Part shown: in pieces, positions 5,111 through 36,980 of the stretch
How positions within the stretch are numbered: position 1 is the first letter of the stretch
Layout: each line of letters opens with the position of its first letter
Assembly: GCA_028701945.1 (NCBI GenBank)
Contig: JAQVPT010000001.1
Location: forward strand, 1 to 36,980
From: Bacteroidales bacterium
GTDB lineage: Bacteria; Bacteroidota; Bacteroidia; Bacteroidales; ML635J-15
Reading direction: 5' to 3'
DNA length: 36,980 nucleotides
The notes under the pieces: model-generated
Database searches by the model: none
What the model saw: only the letters and a program-made list of their open reading frames with translations
Told to the model about the DNA's origin: nothing
Made by a program: the position numbers and the translations under genes

Positions 5111-5138
5111 AAAGCCTGCCTAAAGCAGGCTTTTTTGT
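5111..5138 (+). terminator. Rho-independent terminator after the lipoprotein gene
   Basis: aaagcctgc / gcaggcttt 9-bp stem, 5-nt loop, then a T-run (ttttttg). Confidence 0.8.
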
Positions 5139-9778: not shown

Positions 9779-10594
9779 ATGTCGAAAATTGTTGAAAAAT
9801 ACGCAGAACTTCCTAGACCATTAAGAAAACCACTTTGGCAATGGTGGCATAAAAGAATGAACAAATATGACAGTGGAAATATTGCCAATTTCATGAACTA
9901 TGGTTTCGAATACCTAAATGGTGATGCCAGAATACAATTAAAAGATCAGGACGAAACCGACAGATATTGCATACAGCTTTATGACCACGTTGTAAACCGA
10001 GCTGATTTAAAAACAAAAGACGTTCTTGAAGTGGGTGCCGGAAGAGGCGGAGGAGCGTCATACATAACAAGATACTATAAACCCAAAAGCTATACGGGAA
10101 TGGATATTACTAAAAGTAGTATTGATTTCTGTAACAATCACTACAAAGATGTAGAAGGATTAACTTTTAAGTGTGGAAATGCCGAAAAATTACCTTTCGA
10201 GGACAATTCATTTGATTTTGTAGTTAATGTTGAATCTGCGAGATGCTACAACAATCAAGTCGCATTTTTTAATGAAGTCTTTCGTGTATTAAAACCTGAA
10301 GGAAAATTGCTACTTGCCGACATGGTATATCCTGCCGAGATAGAAAACTTACGAAACTTAATGAAAGAATCAGGTTTTAGCACATTACACGAAACAAATA
10401 TTTCAAAAAACGTAGTGTCAGCATTAGAGAAAGACTCCGAAAGAAGAGAAAATCTTATTGACTCAAAAACGCCTAAATACCTAAGGAGCTCTTTTAAAAC
10501 ATTTGCAGGAACCTTAGGAACATCAAGATATAATAATTTCGCTACTGGAGTTTTTCAGTACTGGAGTTTTATTTTGGAAAAAGGAAAAAACTAA
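9779..10594 (+). CDS. Class I SAM-dependent methyltransferase
   Basis: 271 aa. It has SAM-binding motif I (VLEVGAGRGGGA), the post-I acidic residue (GMDIT) and motif II/III regions (FDFVVNVES, LKPEGKLLLAD). Its last 66 nt are the founder copy of the downstream tandem array. Confidence 0.85.
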   Translation: MSKIVEKYAELPRPLRKPLWQWWHKRMNKYDSGNIANFMNYGFEYLNGDARIQLKDQDETDRYCIQLYDHVVNRADLKTKDVLEVGAGRGGGASYITRYYKPKSYTGMDITKSSIDFCNNHYKDVEGLTFKCGNAEKLPFEDNSFDFVVNVESARCYNNQVAFFNEVFRVLKPEGKLLLADMVYPAEIENLRNLMKESGFSTLHETNISKNVVSALEKDSERRENLIDSKTPKYLRSSFKTFAGTLGTSRYNNFATGVFQYWSFILEKGKN

Positions 10595-10621
10595 ATTTAA
10601 ATTACAAAATTATATCGCTAA

Positions 10622-10667
10622 TCTCACACTGATTTAGCTTCGAGTAACTCGAAGCACAGTTGTGTGA
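10622..10667 (+). terminator. First compound hairpin of the array, the likely terminator or 3' stabiliser for the methyltransferase mRNA
   Basis: Outer arms tctcacac / gtgtga(ga) enclose the palindrome gcttcgagt-a-actcgaagc. It begins 28 nt after the TAA at 10592-10594. Confidence 0.5.
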
Positions 10668-11593
10668 TATAATAATTTCGCTACTGGAGTTTTTCAGTAT
10701 TGGAGTTTTATTTTGGAAAAAGGAAAAAACTAAATTTAAATTACAAAATTATATCGCTAATCTCACACTGATTAAGCTTCGAGTAACTCGAAGCACAGTT
10801 GTGTGATATAATAATTTCGCTACTGGAGTTTTTCAGTATTGGAGTTTTATTTTGGAAAAAGGAAAAAACTAAATTTAAATTACAAAATCATATTGTAATC
10901 TCACACTAATTAAGCTTCGAGTAACTCGAAGCACAGTTGTGTGAGATAATAATTTCGCTACTGGAGTTTTTCAGTATTGGAGTTTTATTTTGGAAAAAGG
11001 AAGAAACTAAATTTAGATTACAAAATTACATTGCTAATCTCACACTGATTAAGCTTCGAGTAACTCGAAGCACAGTTGTGTGAGATAATAATTTCGCTAC
11101 TGGAGTTTTTCAGTACTGGAGTTTTATTTTGGAAAAAGGAAAAAACTAAATTTAAATTACAAAATCATATCGCTAATCTCACACTGATTTAGCTTCGAGT
11201 AACTCGAAGCACAGTTGTGTGAGATAATAATTTCGCTACTGGAGTTTTTCAGTACTGGAGTTTTATTTTGGAAAAAGGAAAAAACTAAATTTAGATTACA
11301 AAATTACATTGCTAATCTCACACTGATTAAGCTTCGAGTAACTCGAAGCACAGTTGTGTGAGACAATAATTTCGCTACTGGAGTTTTTCAGTACTGGAGT
11401 TTTATTTTGGAAAAAGGAAAAAACTAAATTTAAATTACAAAATCATATCGCTAATCTCACACTGATTTAGCTTCGAGTAACTCGAAGCACAGTTGTGTGA
11501 TATAATAATTTCGCTACTGGAGTTTTTCAGTATTGGAGTTTTATTTTGGAAAAAGGAAAAAACTAAATTTAAATTACAAAATCATATCGCTAA

Positions 11594-11639
11594 TCTCACA
11601 CTGATTTAGCTTCGAGTAACTCGAAGCACAGTTGTGTGA
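11594..11639 (-). terminator. Last compound hairpin of the array, the first one met by transcripts leaving the thioredoxin-like gene
   Basis: Same inverted repeat as above. Being palindromic, it folds on either strand. It lies 27 bp beyond the stop of the minus-strand gene that ends at 11666. Confidence 0.45.
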
Positions 11640-11665
11640 AGCTTAGATTGAGTAAGAAAAAAGAT

Positions 11666-11980
11666 TTAATCAATAAGATTTTTTATCCGCTCATACTCTG
11701 CTTGCAATTTTGCCAAATCAACAAAACGTATCATGCTAATAACTTCTTGACCTGCATAAAAAACTTTAAGTGCAGGAACACTCATAACAAGATTTTGAGC
11801 AGCAATATCGGGGTTTGCAAAACAGTCAACAATATAAAATTGCTCACCCCAGTTATTTATTAATTTTTGTATTTGCGGCATTAATGAATCGCAAACTGAA
11901 CATTTATCATTTTTAAAATAAACAAAGCTAAGGGCGTTCATATCCTTGATAGCATTTAGATCGTCAATACTATTAATCAT
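11666..11980 (-). CDS. Thioredoxin-family protein
   Basis: 104 aa. It has a CxxC motif (KCSVCDSL) at the expected place in a thioredoxin-sized protein, and SVPALKVF matches the cis-Pro loop region. Its start overlaps the ispF stop by 8 bp. Confidence 0.7.
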   Translation of the reverse strand: MINSIDDLNAIKDMNALSFVYFKNDKCSVCDSLMPQIQKLINNWGEQFYIVDCFANPDIAAQNLVMSVPALKVFYAGQEVISMIRFVDLAKLQAEYERIKNLID

Positions 11981-20783: not shown

Positions 20784-20803
20784 TAACTCATATTAATAAA
20801 TTT

Positions 20804-20830
20804 AAAACCCCAATTTGGGGTTTTACTTTT
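20804..20830 (+). terminator. Rho-independent terminator between gldJ and murF
   Basis: aaaacccca / tggggtttt 9-bp stem with a 3-nt loop, followed by actttttat. It ends within a few bp of the murF ATG at 20832. Confidence 0.7.
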
Positions 20831-26508: not shown

Positions 26509-27366
26509 ATGAGAAGTAAAATCAAATCATATTTATCGTTAATAAAATTTAGCCATACAGTTTTTGCAATGCCTTTTGCTCTAACAGCTTATTTTATGGC
26601 AATAAAAGAACCAGGGCAAATCTTTGAATGGAGAACTCTAATACTTGTGATATTTTCGATGATATTTGCCCGCAATAGTGCAATGGCTTTTAACAGATAC
26701 ACCGATAGGTTTATCGATGCAAAAAATCCACGAACTCAAAAGCGAGAAATACCAGATAGAATAATATCTGCAAAAAACGCACTAATATTTACAATAATAA
26801 ACTCTATTCTATTTATCATATCATCTTCATTTATAAACACTTACACTTTATTATTGTCGCCCCTAGCCTTATTCATTGTGCTTGGATACTCATACACGAA
26901 ACGCTTTACATTTTTATCTCATATATTTCTAGGTCTCGGACTTGCAATCGCTCCAGCTGGAGCATATATCGCAGTTACTGGAATGCTCAGCCCAGCAGTT
27001 ATGATGTTATCTGCTTCAGTTTTACTTTGGACTGCTGGATTCGACATTATATACTCGCTTCAGGACGAAGAATTTGATAAAGAGCATCAATTATTTTCTA
27101 TCCCCGCAAAAATTGGACGAAAAAACTCATTATGGGTTTCTACTGGATTACATTTTATAGCTATCATATTTATGCTTTTATGGGCTTTTCTAATGTCAGC
27201 AAATCTCCTTCAATGGATAGGTATAGGCGTTTTTACAGCACTTTTAATTTATCAACATATAATTGTAAAGCCTAATGACATTTCAAAAGTCAATATAGCT
27301 TTTGGAACTACTAATGGGATTGCTTCAATTTGTCTTGCAATAGCCACAATTATTTCTTTGCTGTAA
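26509..27366 (+). CDS. UbiA-family aromatic prenyltransferase (4-hydroxybenzoate polyprenyltransferase-like)
   Basis: 285 aa, polytopic membrane protein. It has the first Asp-rich motif (NRYTDRFIDAKNPRT) and the second (DIIYSLQDEEFD). Confidence 0.85.
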   Translation: MRSKIKSYLSLIKFSHTVFAMPFALTAYFMAIKEPGQIFEWRTLILVIFSMIFARNSAMAFNRYTDRFIDAKNPRTQKREIPDRIISAKNALIFTIINSILFIISSSFINTYTLLLSPLALFIVLGYSYTKRFTFLSHIFLGLGLAIAPAGAYIAVTGMLSPAVMMLSASVLLWTAGFDIIYSLQDEEFDKEHQLFSIPAKIGRKNSLWVSTGLHFIAIIFMLLWAFLMSANLLQWIGIGVFTALLIYQHIIVKPNDISKVNIAFGTTNGIASICLAIATIISLL

Positions 27367-27381
27367 AGTACTCTCTCTAAT

Positions 27382-27406
27382 TATTCTTCGAGTAACTCGA
27401 AGAATA
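27382..27406. terminator. Perfect 12+1+12 palindrome at the ubiA-like/cinA convergence point (bidirectional terminator candidate). It shares a 17-nt core with the array hairpin.
   Basis: tattcttcgagt-a-actcgaagaata. The core cttcgagtaactcgaag (27386-27402) is identical to the core of the palindrome repeated 8 times at 10637-11627. Confidence 0.6.
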
Positions 27407-27439
27407 GATGACGAGAAAATACTATACTCACACAGACAT

Positions 27440-36426: not shown

Positions 36427-36980
36427 TTACGATCGTGGATGAAATTGAATAATGGTTTCTCTAAGATATTCTCTGTCAATATGAGTATATATTTCGGTTG
36501 TCGTTATTGACTCGTGTCCCAACATTTCTTGTACTATTCTAAGATTTGCTCCTCCCTCTATTAAGTGTGTGGCAAACGAATGTCGAAATGTGTGAGGAGA
36601 AACATTTTTTTCAATTTCAGCAGATTTACAAGCTTCTTTCACAATTGTAAAAATCATTACTCTGGTTAATTGTTTGCCTCGGCGATTTAAAAATAGAAAA
36701 TCTGCGTGTCCTTTTTGAGGGGTCATTTGATTTCTAAAAGATTGCATGTAAAAACCTATTTCTTTCTTTGCCGCACTACCTAATGGCACAAGTCTTTGCT
36801 TATCTCCTTTACCTATCACTCTTATATAGTCTTCGTTAAAATAAATATTAGAAATCTTTAAATTAATAAGCTCCGATACTCGTAGTCCACAGCCATATAA
36901 TACTTCAATTATTGCTCTGTTCCGATGTCCCAGCATGGTACTAACATCAATTGCTAATAGAACTTTCTCTATTTCGGCAA
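36427..36980 (-). CDS. xerD: Tyrosine site-specific recombinase XerD-like, C-terminal catalytic domain (N-terminus lies beyond the window end)
   Basis: The minus-strand frame is open to base 36978 (...AEIEKVLLAIDVSTMLGHRNRAIIEVLYGCGLRVSEL). Catalytic residues sit in the expected context (GLRVSE, HTFRHSFATHL, LGHESITTTEIYTH). Confidence 0.85.
   Translation of the reverse strand, partial: AEIEKVLLAIDVSTMLGHRNRAIIEVLYGCGLRVSELINLKISNIYFNEDYIRVIGKGDKQRLVPLGSAAKKEIGFYMQSFRNQMTPQKGHADFLFLNRRGKQLTRVMIFTIVKEACKSAEIEKNVSPHTFRHSFATHLIEGGANLRIVQEMLGHESITTTEIYTHIDREYLRETIIQFHPRS

Follow-up and report, generated by a model that had tools for sequence, protein, structure and literature searches.

A tandem array of a gene end and a hairpin between converging genes of a Bacteroidales contig, most likely a young, lineage-specific minisatellite

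Tandem repeats of long period are known from Ehrlichia ruminantium, in which the units are reportedly about 150 bp long and the duplications are said to have left genes truncated or partly duplicated (work attributed to Collins et al. 2005 and Frutos et al. 2006). MIRU-VNTRs are intergenic, minisatellite-like repeats of about 40 to 100 bp which lie by stop codons inside operons and vary in copy number. The REP and BIME sequences of E. coli are extragenic palindromes, sometimes in tandem, which often lie 3' of operons where two genes converge; mRNA stabilisation and effects on termination have been attributed to them. To our knowledge, BIME units contain nothing but REPs and short linkers, and never gene tails. 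Tandem repeats in the non-coding DNA of E. ruminantium have been described as actively expanding and contracting (PMC10710844). The Wolbachia repeats VNTR-141 and VNTR-105 are described by Riegler et al. 2012 (PMC3287509) as intergenic head-to-tail arrays with periods of 141 and 105 bp, each period containing a 23-bp hairpin with a 9-bp palindromic stem. According to the same account, the copy number ranges from 0.8 to 7.3 depending on the strain, the periods are 98 to 99% identical, and the arrays originated by hairpin-triggered slipped-strand mispairing and concerted evolution. In Porphyromonas gingivalis, the BrickBuilt repeat has a 23-nt unit located in a MITE with inverted-repeat ends; it occurs 19 times per genome and has promoter activity (PMC4596501).

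The window analysed here is the whole 36,980-bp contig of an NCBI MAG, and the number and order of the repeat units reported below are a result of its assembly. The contig contains a tandem array which, with a probability of about 70%, is a young, lineage-specific minisatellite (a VNTR-type tandem duplication), most likely neutral or nearly so, with a copy number known from this one MAG contig. The features of the locus are as follows.

9779 to 10594, plus strand: class I SAM-dependent methyltransferase gene, 271 aa (ORF list; Pfam Methyltransf_11/25/31; NCBI MDD4148397.1)
10529 to 11639, no strand assigned: complete array of eight 139-bp units, of which unit 3 has 138 bp (Tandem Repeats Finder, anchor spacing, unit alignment)
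10529 to 10667, plus strand: unit 1, with the genuine gene tail and TAA at 10529-10594, linker at 10595-10621 and hairpin at 10622-10667
10668 to 10806, plus strand: unit 2, hairpin at 10761-10806, palindrome at 10776-10794 (anchor spacing, 19-mer search)
10807 to 10944, plus strand: unit 3 (138 bp), hairpin at 10899-10944 (anchor spacing, unit alignment)
10945 to 11083, plus strand: unit 4, hairpin at 11038-11083 (unit alignment)
11084 to 11222, plus strand: unit 5, hairpin at 11177-11222 (anchor spacing)
11223 to 11361, plus strand: unit 6, near unit 4 in sequence, hairpin at 11316-11361 (exact repeat, pairwise differences)
11362 to 11500, plus strand: unit 7, near unit 5 in sequence, hairpin at 11455-11500 (exact repeat, pairwise differences)
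11501 to 11639, plus strand: unit 8, the final unit, with the hairpin at 11594-11639 abutting the original right-hand spacer (anchor spacing)
11640 to 11665, no strand assigned: leftover unique spacer from the array end to the stop codon of the thioredoxin-like gene (sequence and comparison with relatives)
11666 to 11980, minus strand: thioredoxin-family gene (ORF list; Pfam Thioredoxin; NCBI MDD4148398.1)
27366 to 27425, plus strand: second, single hairpin of the same family, outside the array (TATTCTTCGAGTAACTCGAAGAATA at 27382-27406; covariance model 75.9 bits)

The array lies between two converging genes, the methyltransferase gene on the plus strand and the thioredoxin-like gene on the minus strand, and is downstream of both transcription units. 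The homologues of the methyltransferase are 267 to 273 aa long and share its C-terminal tail; the gene is not shortened, and the tail belongs natively to this family. The thioredoxin-like gene is the last of a minus-strand porU-porV-ispF-trx string (Pfam Thioredoxin, YgbB, PorV, Peptidase_C25). The accession numbers of the two flanking proteins are consecutive, suggesting that no annotated protein lies inside the array. A reading of the locus made from the DNA letters only, referred to below as the sequence-only reading, had proposed a contingency locus; this idea is weakened by the position of the array, which is neither at a promoter nor in a reading frame.

Tandem Repeats Finder reported a repeat at 10530-11639 with a period of 139, 8.0 copies, 96% matches and a score of 2038, the only tandem array within the 37 kb. 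The anchor-to-anchor spacings were 139, 139, 138, 139, 139, 139 and 139. Each unit consists of three parts: 66 nt which in unit 1 (10529-10594) are the final 21 codons and the TAA of the methyltransferase gene, a 27-nt AT-rich linker, and a 46-nt compound hairpin built around the palindrome GCTTCGAGTAACTCGAAGC. This 19-mer occurs exactly 8 times, with 0 occurrences expected by chance. A 2-nt GA microhomology is present at 10527-10528, just before the array. Copies 2 to 8 are each preceded by an in-frame TGA, and all six frames are closed over 10595-11665, the longest open stretch being 52 codons. The sequence-only reading had given the same count, order and lengths of units, the same three parts, and the same conclusion that the array is non-coding; repeat finding with anchor spacing, sequence alignment and the six-frame check, respectively, bear it out on these points. 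Its uniform tail copy held for the 66-nt match and failed at the first codon, which is TAT in units 1, 2, 3 and 8 only and is replaced by GAT or GAC in units 4 to 7.

Eleven columns are variable among the units (8 transitions, 2 transversions and 1 indel). Unit 3 has a 1-nt deletion in the linker and a G-to-A change which converts a G.U pair to A-U, while in the linker of unit 4 the alleles G and T are of ancestral type and its tail copy has an A-to-G change of the K-to-R type. A 136-bp exact repeat at a distance of 278 indicates that units 4-5 and units 6-7 are a two-unit block duplication. Most variants are common to at least two units, and four-gamete violations give a mosaic pattern. Together with the block duplication and four fixed derived bases (see below), these features point to unequal exchange or concerted evolution between units. 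The variable sites are unevenly spread, with 5 of 27 in the linker, 3 of 65 in the tail and 2 of 46 in the hairpin (post-hoc Fisher p = 0.04), which could be a hint of constraint, or of gene conversion from the functional copy. No stem position varies in the inner and outer helix, and this invariance is not significant (p = 0.08).

The four syntenic relatives (L001, L006/L007, L139 and L140) have a spacer of 42-43 bp without hairpin or repeat, and in the alignment about 50 nt of hairpin stand opposite a gap in all four. Their thioredoxin proteins are 79-83% identical to that of the window, 83% being the value for the closest thioredoxin homologue found; the methyltransferase proteins of L001 and L006/L007 are about 88% identical, and L001 shares 81-83% DNA identity with the window. 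The nearest relative found, L138, has 92% nucleotide identity, and its contig stops 22 nt past the stop codon, inside the linker. In L001 and L138 the native spacer is the homologue of the linker, and L001, L138, L006, L139 and L140 have a single-copy homologue of tail and linker together. Four derived bases are present in 8 of 8 units and absent from both L138 and L001, and at two other sites the ancestral alleles persist only in downstream units. As the four derived bases are common to all units, the common ancestor of the units is younger than the divergence of this lineage from its nearest known relative. No array was present in any of the relatives examined outside the syntenic set; the contigs of the P0001, P0004 and P0006 lineages are not syntenic downstream and contain no repeat.

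The inner stem of the hairpin is 8 bp long. The outer stem comprises 6 bp in units 1, 2, 7 and 8, and 9 bp (ATCTCACAC/GTGTGAGAT) in units 3 to 5, while that of unit 6 has 8 bp; a T-to-G change at the unit junction accounts for the different lengths. The compound layout proposed by the sequence-only reading was thus correct, while its uniform outer arms were not. The folding check which it had suggested showed strong folding for every unit (z = -3.4) and for each hairpin (z = -4 to -7). RNA of the plus strand folds better than that of the minus strand (-20.5 versus -17.3 kcal/mol), and additional G.U pairs give a near-continuous hairpin in the plus-strand RNA. The sole stem-adjacent substitution, the G-to-A change of unit 3, preserves pairing. 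The word terminator, which had been applied to the hairpin, does not fit: the stem is followed by ATATAATAATTTCGC on the plus strand and GATTAGCGATAT on the minus strand, there is no T-run after the hairpin on either strand, and a terminator scan found no intrinsic terminator in the array. Canonical A/T-flanked terminator hairpins are present elsewhere in the window, at 5111-5133 and 20803-20825.

The array hairpin is a member of a small family of conserved palindromes, of low copy number, in convergent spacers. The single copy at 27366-27425, which bears on the origin of the array hairpin, is located in the convergent UbiA/CinA spacer and has an orthologous copy in L131; homologous compound hairpins are also present in non-orthologous convergent spacers at L076 and L090 in the closest syntenic MAG. 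These hairpins have common TCTCACA...core...TTGTGTG blocks, and the family is conserved in other convergent spacers of the clade with compensatory changes. There are two palindrome loci in the 37-kb contig and two exact-core matches in the whole closest MAG, and a covariance-model scan of 37 kb plus 82 kb found no further copies. The 17-mer core gave 97 single matches in 185,579 representative genomes, of the order of the chance expectation (about 70), and only two of these were from a relative. Sixteen matches of the 19-mer in JGI metagenomes were all unrelated and high in GC, and three matches of the 17-mer in viral contigs were also unrelated; the scans of the representative genomes with the 17-nt core and of the JGI metagenomes with the 19-nt palindrome revealed no other array. 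An assignment of the left hairpin arm (TCACAC) to the native spacer, where L139 and L140 have ATCACAC, was dropped; this likeness is more likely a coincidence, because a homologous compound hairpin was found in L090.

Several known kinds of element were searched for. The whole 139-bp period repeats, so that there are no unique spacers as in CRISPR, and no cas-type domain was detected by Pfam in window ORFs of at least 100 aa. An IS or MITE was rejected as well: no transposase was found by Pfam in the same ORFs, and the array ends in coding sequence on one side and in a hairpin foot on the other, without terminal inverted repeats. The sequence-only reading had likewise excluded CRISPR and an IS. 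AGCTT, on both sides of the inner hairpin or of the inserted part, is the only possible direct repeat, and its reading is ambiguous. Rfam gave nothing at gathering score in the window, only sub-threshold plant miRNA-precursor models (41 bits versus a gathering score of 195). ARAGORN found no tRNA or tmRNA, and no blastn match pointed to a phage or plasmid origin. A sigma-70 scan of the array was at background level. On the minus strand, 4 units contain the Bacteroidetes -7 motif TAnnTTTG, which is the background rate, and do so without a -33 partner, and no full promoter motif of the Bacteroidetes type was present in the array. The GTAG/CGTC tag of REPs or its complement, the criterion given in PMC3733652, is absent at the hairpin foot in the array, L076 and L090, and no RAYT gene (IS200/IS605-like TnpA) was found within the window by Pfam.

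It is unlikely that the array is a functional multi-hairpin module of REP/BIME-like type, a stacked 3'-end stabiliser or an RNA polymerase roadblock which would insulate the converging transcripts and whose copy number would tune the effect. Its location exactly between the converging transcription units would suit such a role, as would the strong folding, the near-continuous plus-strand hairpin whose pairing survives the substitution in unit 3, the invariant inner and outer stems, and the conservation of the hairpin family, with compensatory changes, at other convergent spacers. But array and hairpin are missing at this locus in every syntenic relative, which argues that the neighbouring genes do not need them; moreover, the hairpins have no U-tract, though the genome possesses canonical terminator hairpins, the stem invariance falls short of significance, and the repeated gene tail and linker would have no obvious role. 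That the palindrome (core CTTCGAGTAACTCGAAG, outer arms CACA/TGTG) is a clade-specific functional 3'-end element, and the array its copy-number-variable stack, is considered quite unlikely. Such an element might be a putative protein binding site, or an RNA-stability or roadblock hairpin between converging operons. If so, the array would be the Bacteroidales counterpart of BIME arrays, made by segmental duplication and not by transposition, and would tune how well the methyltransferase gene and the T9SS-ispF-trx operon are insulated or how stable their mRNAs are.

The probability is similarly low that the assembly inflated or re-ordered the copy number, the real locus having fewer units (at least two) and a repeat cycle or strain variants having been unrolled to eight. 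Short-read assemblers usually collapse rather than expand tandem arrays, which counts against such an error. The longest exact repeat in the array is 138 bp, therefore every 141-mer is unique and the path is resolvable in principle; three junction variants (GATAT, GAGAT and GAGAC) and 7 multi-unit variants need several real units, and the differences are mostly transitions, not homopolymer indels. On the other hand, the source is a MAG contig, sister MAGs of the same submission series have SPAdes-style names and a coverage of about 4-5x, and tandem repeats are described as a known source of assembly errors in PMC6868369. Amplification driven by the hairpin itself, as a REP/REPIN- or MITE-like mobile element with a cognate transposase (e.g. 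RAYT or IS200/IS605-type), is very unlikely. The homologous hairpins at non-orthologous convergent spacers, the status of the hairpin as an insertion relative to all syntenic relatives and the AGCTT repeat readable on both sides of the inserted part are consistent with it. A hairpin-specific enzyme, however, would not copy the coding part (66 nt) and the native-spacer part (27 nt) of each unit, the family is of low copy number, the tag said in PMC3733652 to mark most REPs is lacking, and the window is without transposase or RAYT. Small proteins encoded by the units are highly improbable. The mechanical ORF list contains three 48-codon, TTG-initiated ORFs (10660-10806, 10937-11083 and 11215-11361), but these are present only where a T/A polymorphism removes a TAG, their TTG start lies in a hairpin arm, the 48-aa products have no Pfam match, and the 139-bp period shifts the frame with each unit, and all frames are closed; a protein repeat was rejected on the same grounds.

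The preferred explanation remains a lineage-specific minisatellite. Head-to-tail copies without unique sequence between them, a unit derived from local single-copy DNA and orthologous loci without the repeat are what was found, as in VNTRs and minisatellites. A neutral minisatellite seeded by slippage next to the hairpin was one of four hypotheses of the sequence-only reading and fits best of the four, given the relatives without array, the derived bases and the mosaic variants. Neutrality is most likely in view of the absence of conservation. As a counterpoint, the hairpin family is conserved, and the hairpin may have a function which the array multiplies.

The relatives show that the ancestral locus was single-copy, with a spacer of 42-43 bp between the converging methyltransferase and thioredoxin genes, and that this lineage gained a compound hairpin of about 50 nt in the spacer, by an inferred mechanism. 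An illegitimate duplication would then have linked the hairpin's 3' foot (...GTGTGA) with a site lying 66 nt within the gene (TATAAT...), with only the 2-nt GA microhomology to use; the probable trigger was stalled replication or slippage of a strand at the hairpin. The unit contains a gene tail because one endpoint of the duplication fell inside the CDS. The pattern of variants suggests that two 139-bp copies became eight by homologous unequal crossing-over and slippage, at times of two-unit blocks, and that variants were shuffled between units during the expansion. The T-to-G change at the junction may have given the perfect 9-bp outer stem, and is of the type expected of quasipalindrome template switching, an established mutation mechanism (PMC7202029). 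The array was presumably tolerated, as the first copy retains the full CDS and stop codon and the array lies in a convergent "dead zone" downstream of both transcription units. If the array influences 3'-end processing or RNA stability at all, this would be a side effect.

As it stands, the array is of little wider importance. It would be a clean, datable example of a hairpin-adjacent illegitimate duplication growing into a long-period minisatellite in a free-living member of the Bacteroidales, and could serve as a strain-typing (VNTR) marker for an uncultured lineage. For annotators, it implies that "gene tail plus hairpin" modules are the automatic outcome of a duplication whose endpoint lands in a CDS. 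What might reward further work is the family of conserved hairpins in convergent spacers; if it binds a factor or defines transcript ends, it would be a handle on 3'-end biology in Bacteroidales.

The array is best read as not being a new class of genetic element. The sequence-only reading had placed its architecture in no described class, but long-period, hairpin-bearing intergenic VNTRs have been described (PMC3287509). With CRISPR the array shares palindromic repeats at regular spacing, but not the unique spacers or a cas-type domain in the window ORFs. MIRUs are dispersed over many loci, and their short ORFs overlap flanking genes, whereas the unit found here is a local duplication at one locus. 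REPs occur in hundreds of copies, most with a GTAG or CGTC tag according to PMC3733652, in contrast to the low-copy, untagged hairpin family of this contig. Like BrickBuilt, the array is a Bacteroidales intergenic tandem array without spacers (PMC4596501), but its unit is 139 nt long, and the array has no terminal inverted repeats and is confined to a single locus. The closest analogues appear to be the tandem repeats of E. ruminantium and the Wolbachia repeats VNTR-141 and VNTR-105. In E. ruminantium the repeats are genome-wide in a reduced intracellular genome, as against one array in 37 kb here. The Wolbachia periods belong to another phylum, have no sequence similarity to the present unit, and the account of them as intergenic mentions no coding part, whereas 66 of 139 nt are here the end of a CDS with its stop codon; variation of copy number between strains has been demonstrated there, while the present number comes from one MAG contig alone. 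In its 139-bp period, its hairpin with an 8-bp inner and a 6-9-bp outer stem, its 8 copies and their 96% identity, the array resembles the Wolbachia VNTRs.

Tandem Repeats Finder detected a single array in the entire window, at 10530-11639, with a period of 139, 8.0 copies and 96% matches. The anchor spacings within the units were 139, 139, 138, 139, 139, 139 and 139, so the eight tandem 139-bp units described in the sequence-only reading, with a third unit of 138 bp, were borne out. The tail, linker and hairpin anatomy of each unit was also recovered. The first 66 nt of a unit match, exactly or almost so, the final 21 codons and TAA of the ORF at 9779-10594; an AT-rich linker of 27 nt follows, and a compound hairpin of 46 nt ends the unit.

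10529-10667, unit 1
10668-10806, unit 2
10807-10944, unit 3 (138 bp)
10945-11083, unit 4
11084-11222, unit 5
11223-11361, unit 6
11362-11500, unit 7
11501-11639, unit 8

The 19-nt palindrome GCTTCGAGTAACTCGAAGC of the hairpin was present in eight exact copies, compared with 0 expected. As a small correction, the outer stem measured 6 to 9 bp depending on the unit. From the methyltransferase stop to the thioredoxin stop all six frames were closed, as had been stated, and the longest open run was 52 codons; that the units are coding is extremely improbable. A near-direct repeat, two occurrences of (T)ACTGGAGTTTT, lies within the coding tail at 10535-10568 and at the same offset in all units, and RNAfold predicted a 14-bp hairpin there. 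A C/T polymorphism among the units corresponds to the bulged base of this predicted hairpin.

The window, 36,980 bp, makes up a complete contig of an NCBI MAG from an uncultured member of the Bacteroidales. The genes relevant here were:

9779-10594, class I SAM-dependent methyltransferase (MDD4148397.1)
11666-11980, strand opposite the methyltransferase, thioredoxin-family gene, trx (MDD4148398.1)
36427-36936, minus strand, truncated tyrosine-recombinase ORF with a Phage_integrase-family domain, with the contig end about 40 nt away

The consecutive accessions of the two flanking genes suggest that no protein was annotated in the array. A minus-strand string of a porU-like C25 peptidase gene, porV, ispF and trx ends at trx, and the array is therefore located between two converging transcription units. 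The remaining genes of the contig have housekeeping or type IX secretion functions. The ORF at 36427-36936 is the sole recombinase-like gene of the window and lies 25 kb away from the array. Homologues of the methyltransferase (267-273 aa) have a common C-terminal tail, ...YNNFATGVFQYWSF(I/V)LEK..., so that copy 1 is the real C-terminus of the enzyme; copies 2-8 are non-coding duplicates.

The locus was compared with four syntenic relatives:

L001, GCA_028686735.1
L006/L007, Logan assemblies
L139, JGI 3300028602
L140, ENA ERZ27250894

A spacer of 42-43 bp separated the stop codons of the methyltransferase and thioredoxin genes in each of them, and it contained neither hairpin nor repeat. About 50 nt of the window hairpin faced a gap in every relative in the multiple alignment, while the 27-nt linker had homology to native spacer sequence in L001 and in the closest relative, L138 (ENA ERZ926209, k127), whose methyltransferase showed 96.7% protein and 92.2% DNA identity. 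The 992-bp L138 contig breaks off within the linker, 22 nt past the stop codon, which could reflect low coverage or a repeat-induced assembly break. In the methyltransferase lineages P0001, P0004 and P0006 the downstream region was non-syntenic and contained no repeat. The P0001-lineage gene (86% aa identity; L002-L005) is preceded by rhodanese and Methyltransf_33 genes, with trx missing downstream, unlike in L001 and L006. Synteny of the locus is therefore not universal across the clade. Representative genomes (185,579) and viral contigs were searched for exact matches to the 17-nt hairpin core, and JGI metagenomes for the 19-nt palindrome; no further array or unit junction was detected. In several high-GC metagenome contigs (L108, L109, L112, L113, L114, L119, L120 and L122) the 19-nt palindrome is surrounded by a common conserved block of about 100 nt (...GATGTATCGCTTCGAGTAACTCGAAGCGAGGCGTGGGGATCC...). 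The block could represent a conserved element, or a structured RNA, of an unrelated organism.

Eleven of the 139 unit columns were variable (8 transitions, 2 transversions and one 1-nt deletion), and 7 variants were common to at least two units. All four allele combinations were present in several column pairs, which indicates that units have exchanged sequence. A two-unit block duplication links units 4-5 with units 6-7, marked by an exact 136-bp repeat at a distance of 278, and the alternative TRF period of 416 bp agrees with this. Over the 88 nt that could be compared with the outgroups L138 and L001, four bases were common to all eight units and different from both outgroups; the outgroup allele at two polymorphic sites persisted in downstream units only and was missing from the coding copy. 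The common ancestor of the units thus postdates the divergence from the nearest known relative. Later point mutations arose and were passed between units, the functional copy included.

The duplication junction (...GTGTGA|TATAAT...) and the original left boundary (...CAAGA|TATAAT...) have only GA in common, and the founding duplication was therefore illegitimate and not driven by homology. The junction generated GTGTGATAT, which is the complement of ATCTCACAC except for one mismatch. The first base of units 2-8 (10668, 10807, 10945, 11084, 11223, 11362 and 11501) was T in three cases and G in four. Units 1, 2, 7 and 8 have an outer stem of 6 bp. In units 3-5 it extends to 9 bp and in unit 6 to 8 bp, the lengthening being caused by the T to G change at the junction. 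Three of the four G junctions gave a perfect 9-bp outer stem and changed the DNA folding energy from -11.4 to -15.1 kcal/mol; at the fourth, an additional T to C change at the third base limited the stem to 8 bp. Template switching at quasipalindromes is expected to leave transversions that complete an imperfect palindrome (PMC7202029), and the T to G change may have arisen in this way.

Hairpins related to that of the array were found at the following sites:

27382-27406 (hairpin 27366-27425), further palindrome sharing the 17-nt core, converging UbiA/CinA spacer
L131, 3714-3770, orthologue of the UbiA/CinA-spacer hairpin, stem kept, TAA loop missing
L076, 2766-2826, converging spacer of an S46 peptidase gene and another gene
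L090, 4937-4996, minus strand, converging spacer

The UbiA/CinA-spacer hairpin was absent from the more distant relatives L126-L129. The L090 hairpin reads TCTCACA-ATTGGT-core-ATCAGA-TTGTGTG, that of the array TCTCACA-CTGATTTAG-core-CACAG-TTGTGTG, and the L076 hairpin has outer arms CACAA...TTTGTG. The family, with core CTTCGAGTAACTCGAAG and outer arms CACA.../...TGTG, thus occupies non-orthologous converging-gene spacers of the MAG and its closest relatives. RNAalifold gave 17 pairs for seven family sequences, 5 of them with compensatory double changes. A covariance model built from these sequences was run over the window and 81.8 kb of DNA from relatives and detected no extra copy. The 17-mer had 97 genome matches, which is about the chance expectation, two of them (L076 and L090) in the MAG of the closest syntenic relative. 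No family copy has a U-tract. The term terminator, previously applied to the array hairpin, is unsuitable because no T-run follows it on either strand. Ordinary intrinsic terminators do exist in this genome, as shown by canonical A/T-flanked hairpins of the bidirectional type at 5111-5133 and 20803-20825 (AAAGCCTGCCTAAAGCAGGCTTT and TAAAACCCCAATTTGGGGTTTTA), unlike the array hairpin.

The array is a real feature, a bacterial long-period intergenic VNTR or minisatellite, with the copy number as assembled in the MAG. We favor, with a probability of about 0.7, a young, lineage-specific tandem duplication: the founding event would have occurred beside the hairpin, slippage or unequal crossing-over would have expanded the array, and it would have been tolerated owing to its position downstream of the two flanking operons and to the methyltransferase being left intact. 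Since the sequence is from a MAG, assembly may have inflated the copy number or mis-ordered units. This is quite improbable, as the longest exact repeat within the array is 138 bp, so that each 141-mer is unique, and three junction variants and the shared polymorphisms also argue against it.

A functional multi-hairpin 3' module or insulator would fit the position of the array, its strong folding, the better folding of plus-strand RNA (-20.5 versus -17.3 kcal/mol) and the stems without variation. It is nevertheless unlikely: the array is missing in all syntenic relatives, a U-tract is lacking, the stem invariance was non-significant (p = 0.08) and the excess of linker variation (p = 0.04) was a post hoc result only. 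Identity of the 17-nt core at four loci makes a function of the hairpin somewhat likelier, and the palindrome could be a functional 3'-end element of the clade of which the array is a tunable stack, but we consider this doubtful. The core identity leaves the reading as a tandem duplication unchanged because the amplified segment includes 93 nt of ordinary local sequence. Pfam scans of the window revealed no transposase or cas-type domain, and amplification driven by an element is very unlikely.

Rfam gave no match at the gathering threshold; below it, only plant miRNA-precursor models appeared, at 41 bits versus a gathering score of 195. No tRNA or tmRNA and no similarity to phages or plasmids was found. 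Sigma-70-like sites were at background level, and four units had a Bacteroidetes -7-like motif on their minus strand, at the background rate and with no -33 partner. ORFs of 48 codons in three units were dismissed, being dependent on a T/A polymorphism, starting with TTG within the stem and matching no family. CRISPR, IS, MITE and BrickBuilt (PMC4596501) identities were rejected. The hairpin family was not assigned to REP sequences: it carries no GTAG or CGTC tag (PMC3733652), and its copy number in the DNA scanned was low. The array resembles BIME arrays in position and stacked palindromes, but its palindromes do not qualify as REP sequences. The second-closest analogue is found in Ehrlichia ruminantium, whose repeat units of about 150 bp duplicate gene fragments. 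Tandem repeats in the non-coding regions of that species expand and contract (PMC10710844). The nearest described analogues are VNTR-141 and VNTR-105 of Wolbachia. Their periods measure 141 and 105 bp, show 98-99% identity and carry 23-bp hairpins whose stems are 9 bp long, and strains have 0.8-7.3 copies; the authors explained the loci by slippage triggered at the hairpins together with concerted evolution (PMC3287509). With such close analogues, the earlier view that the array belongs to no described element class is not supported: the unit contains a gene tail and stop codon because an endpoint of the duplication fell there, which represents no new design principle.
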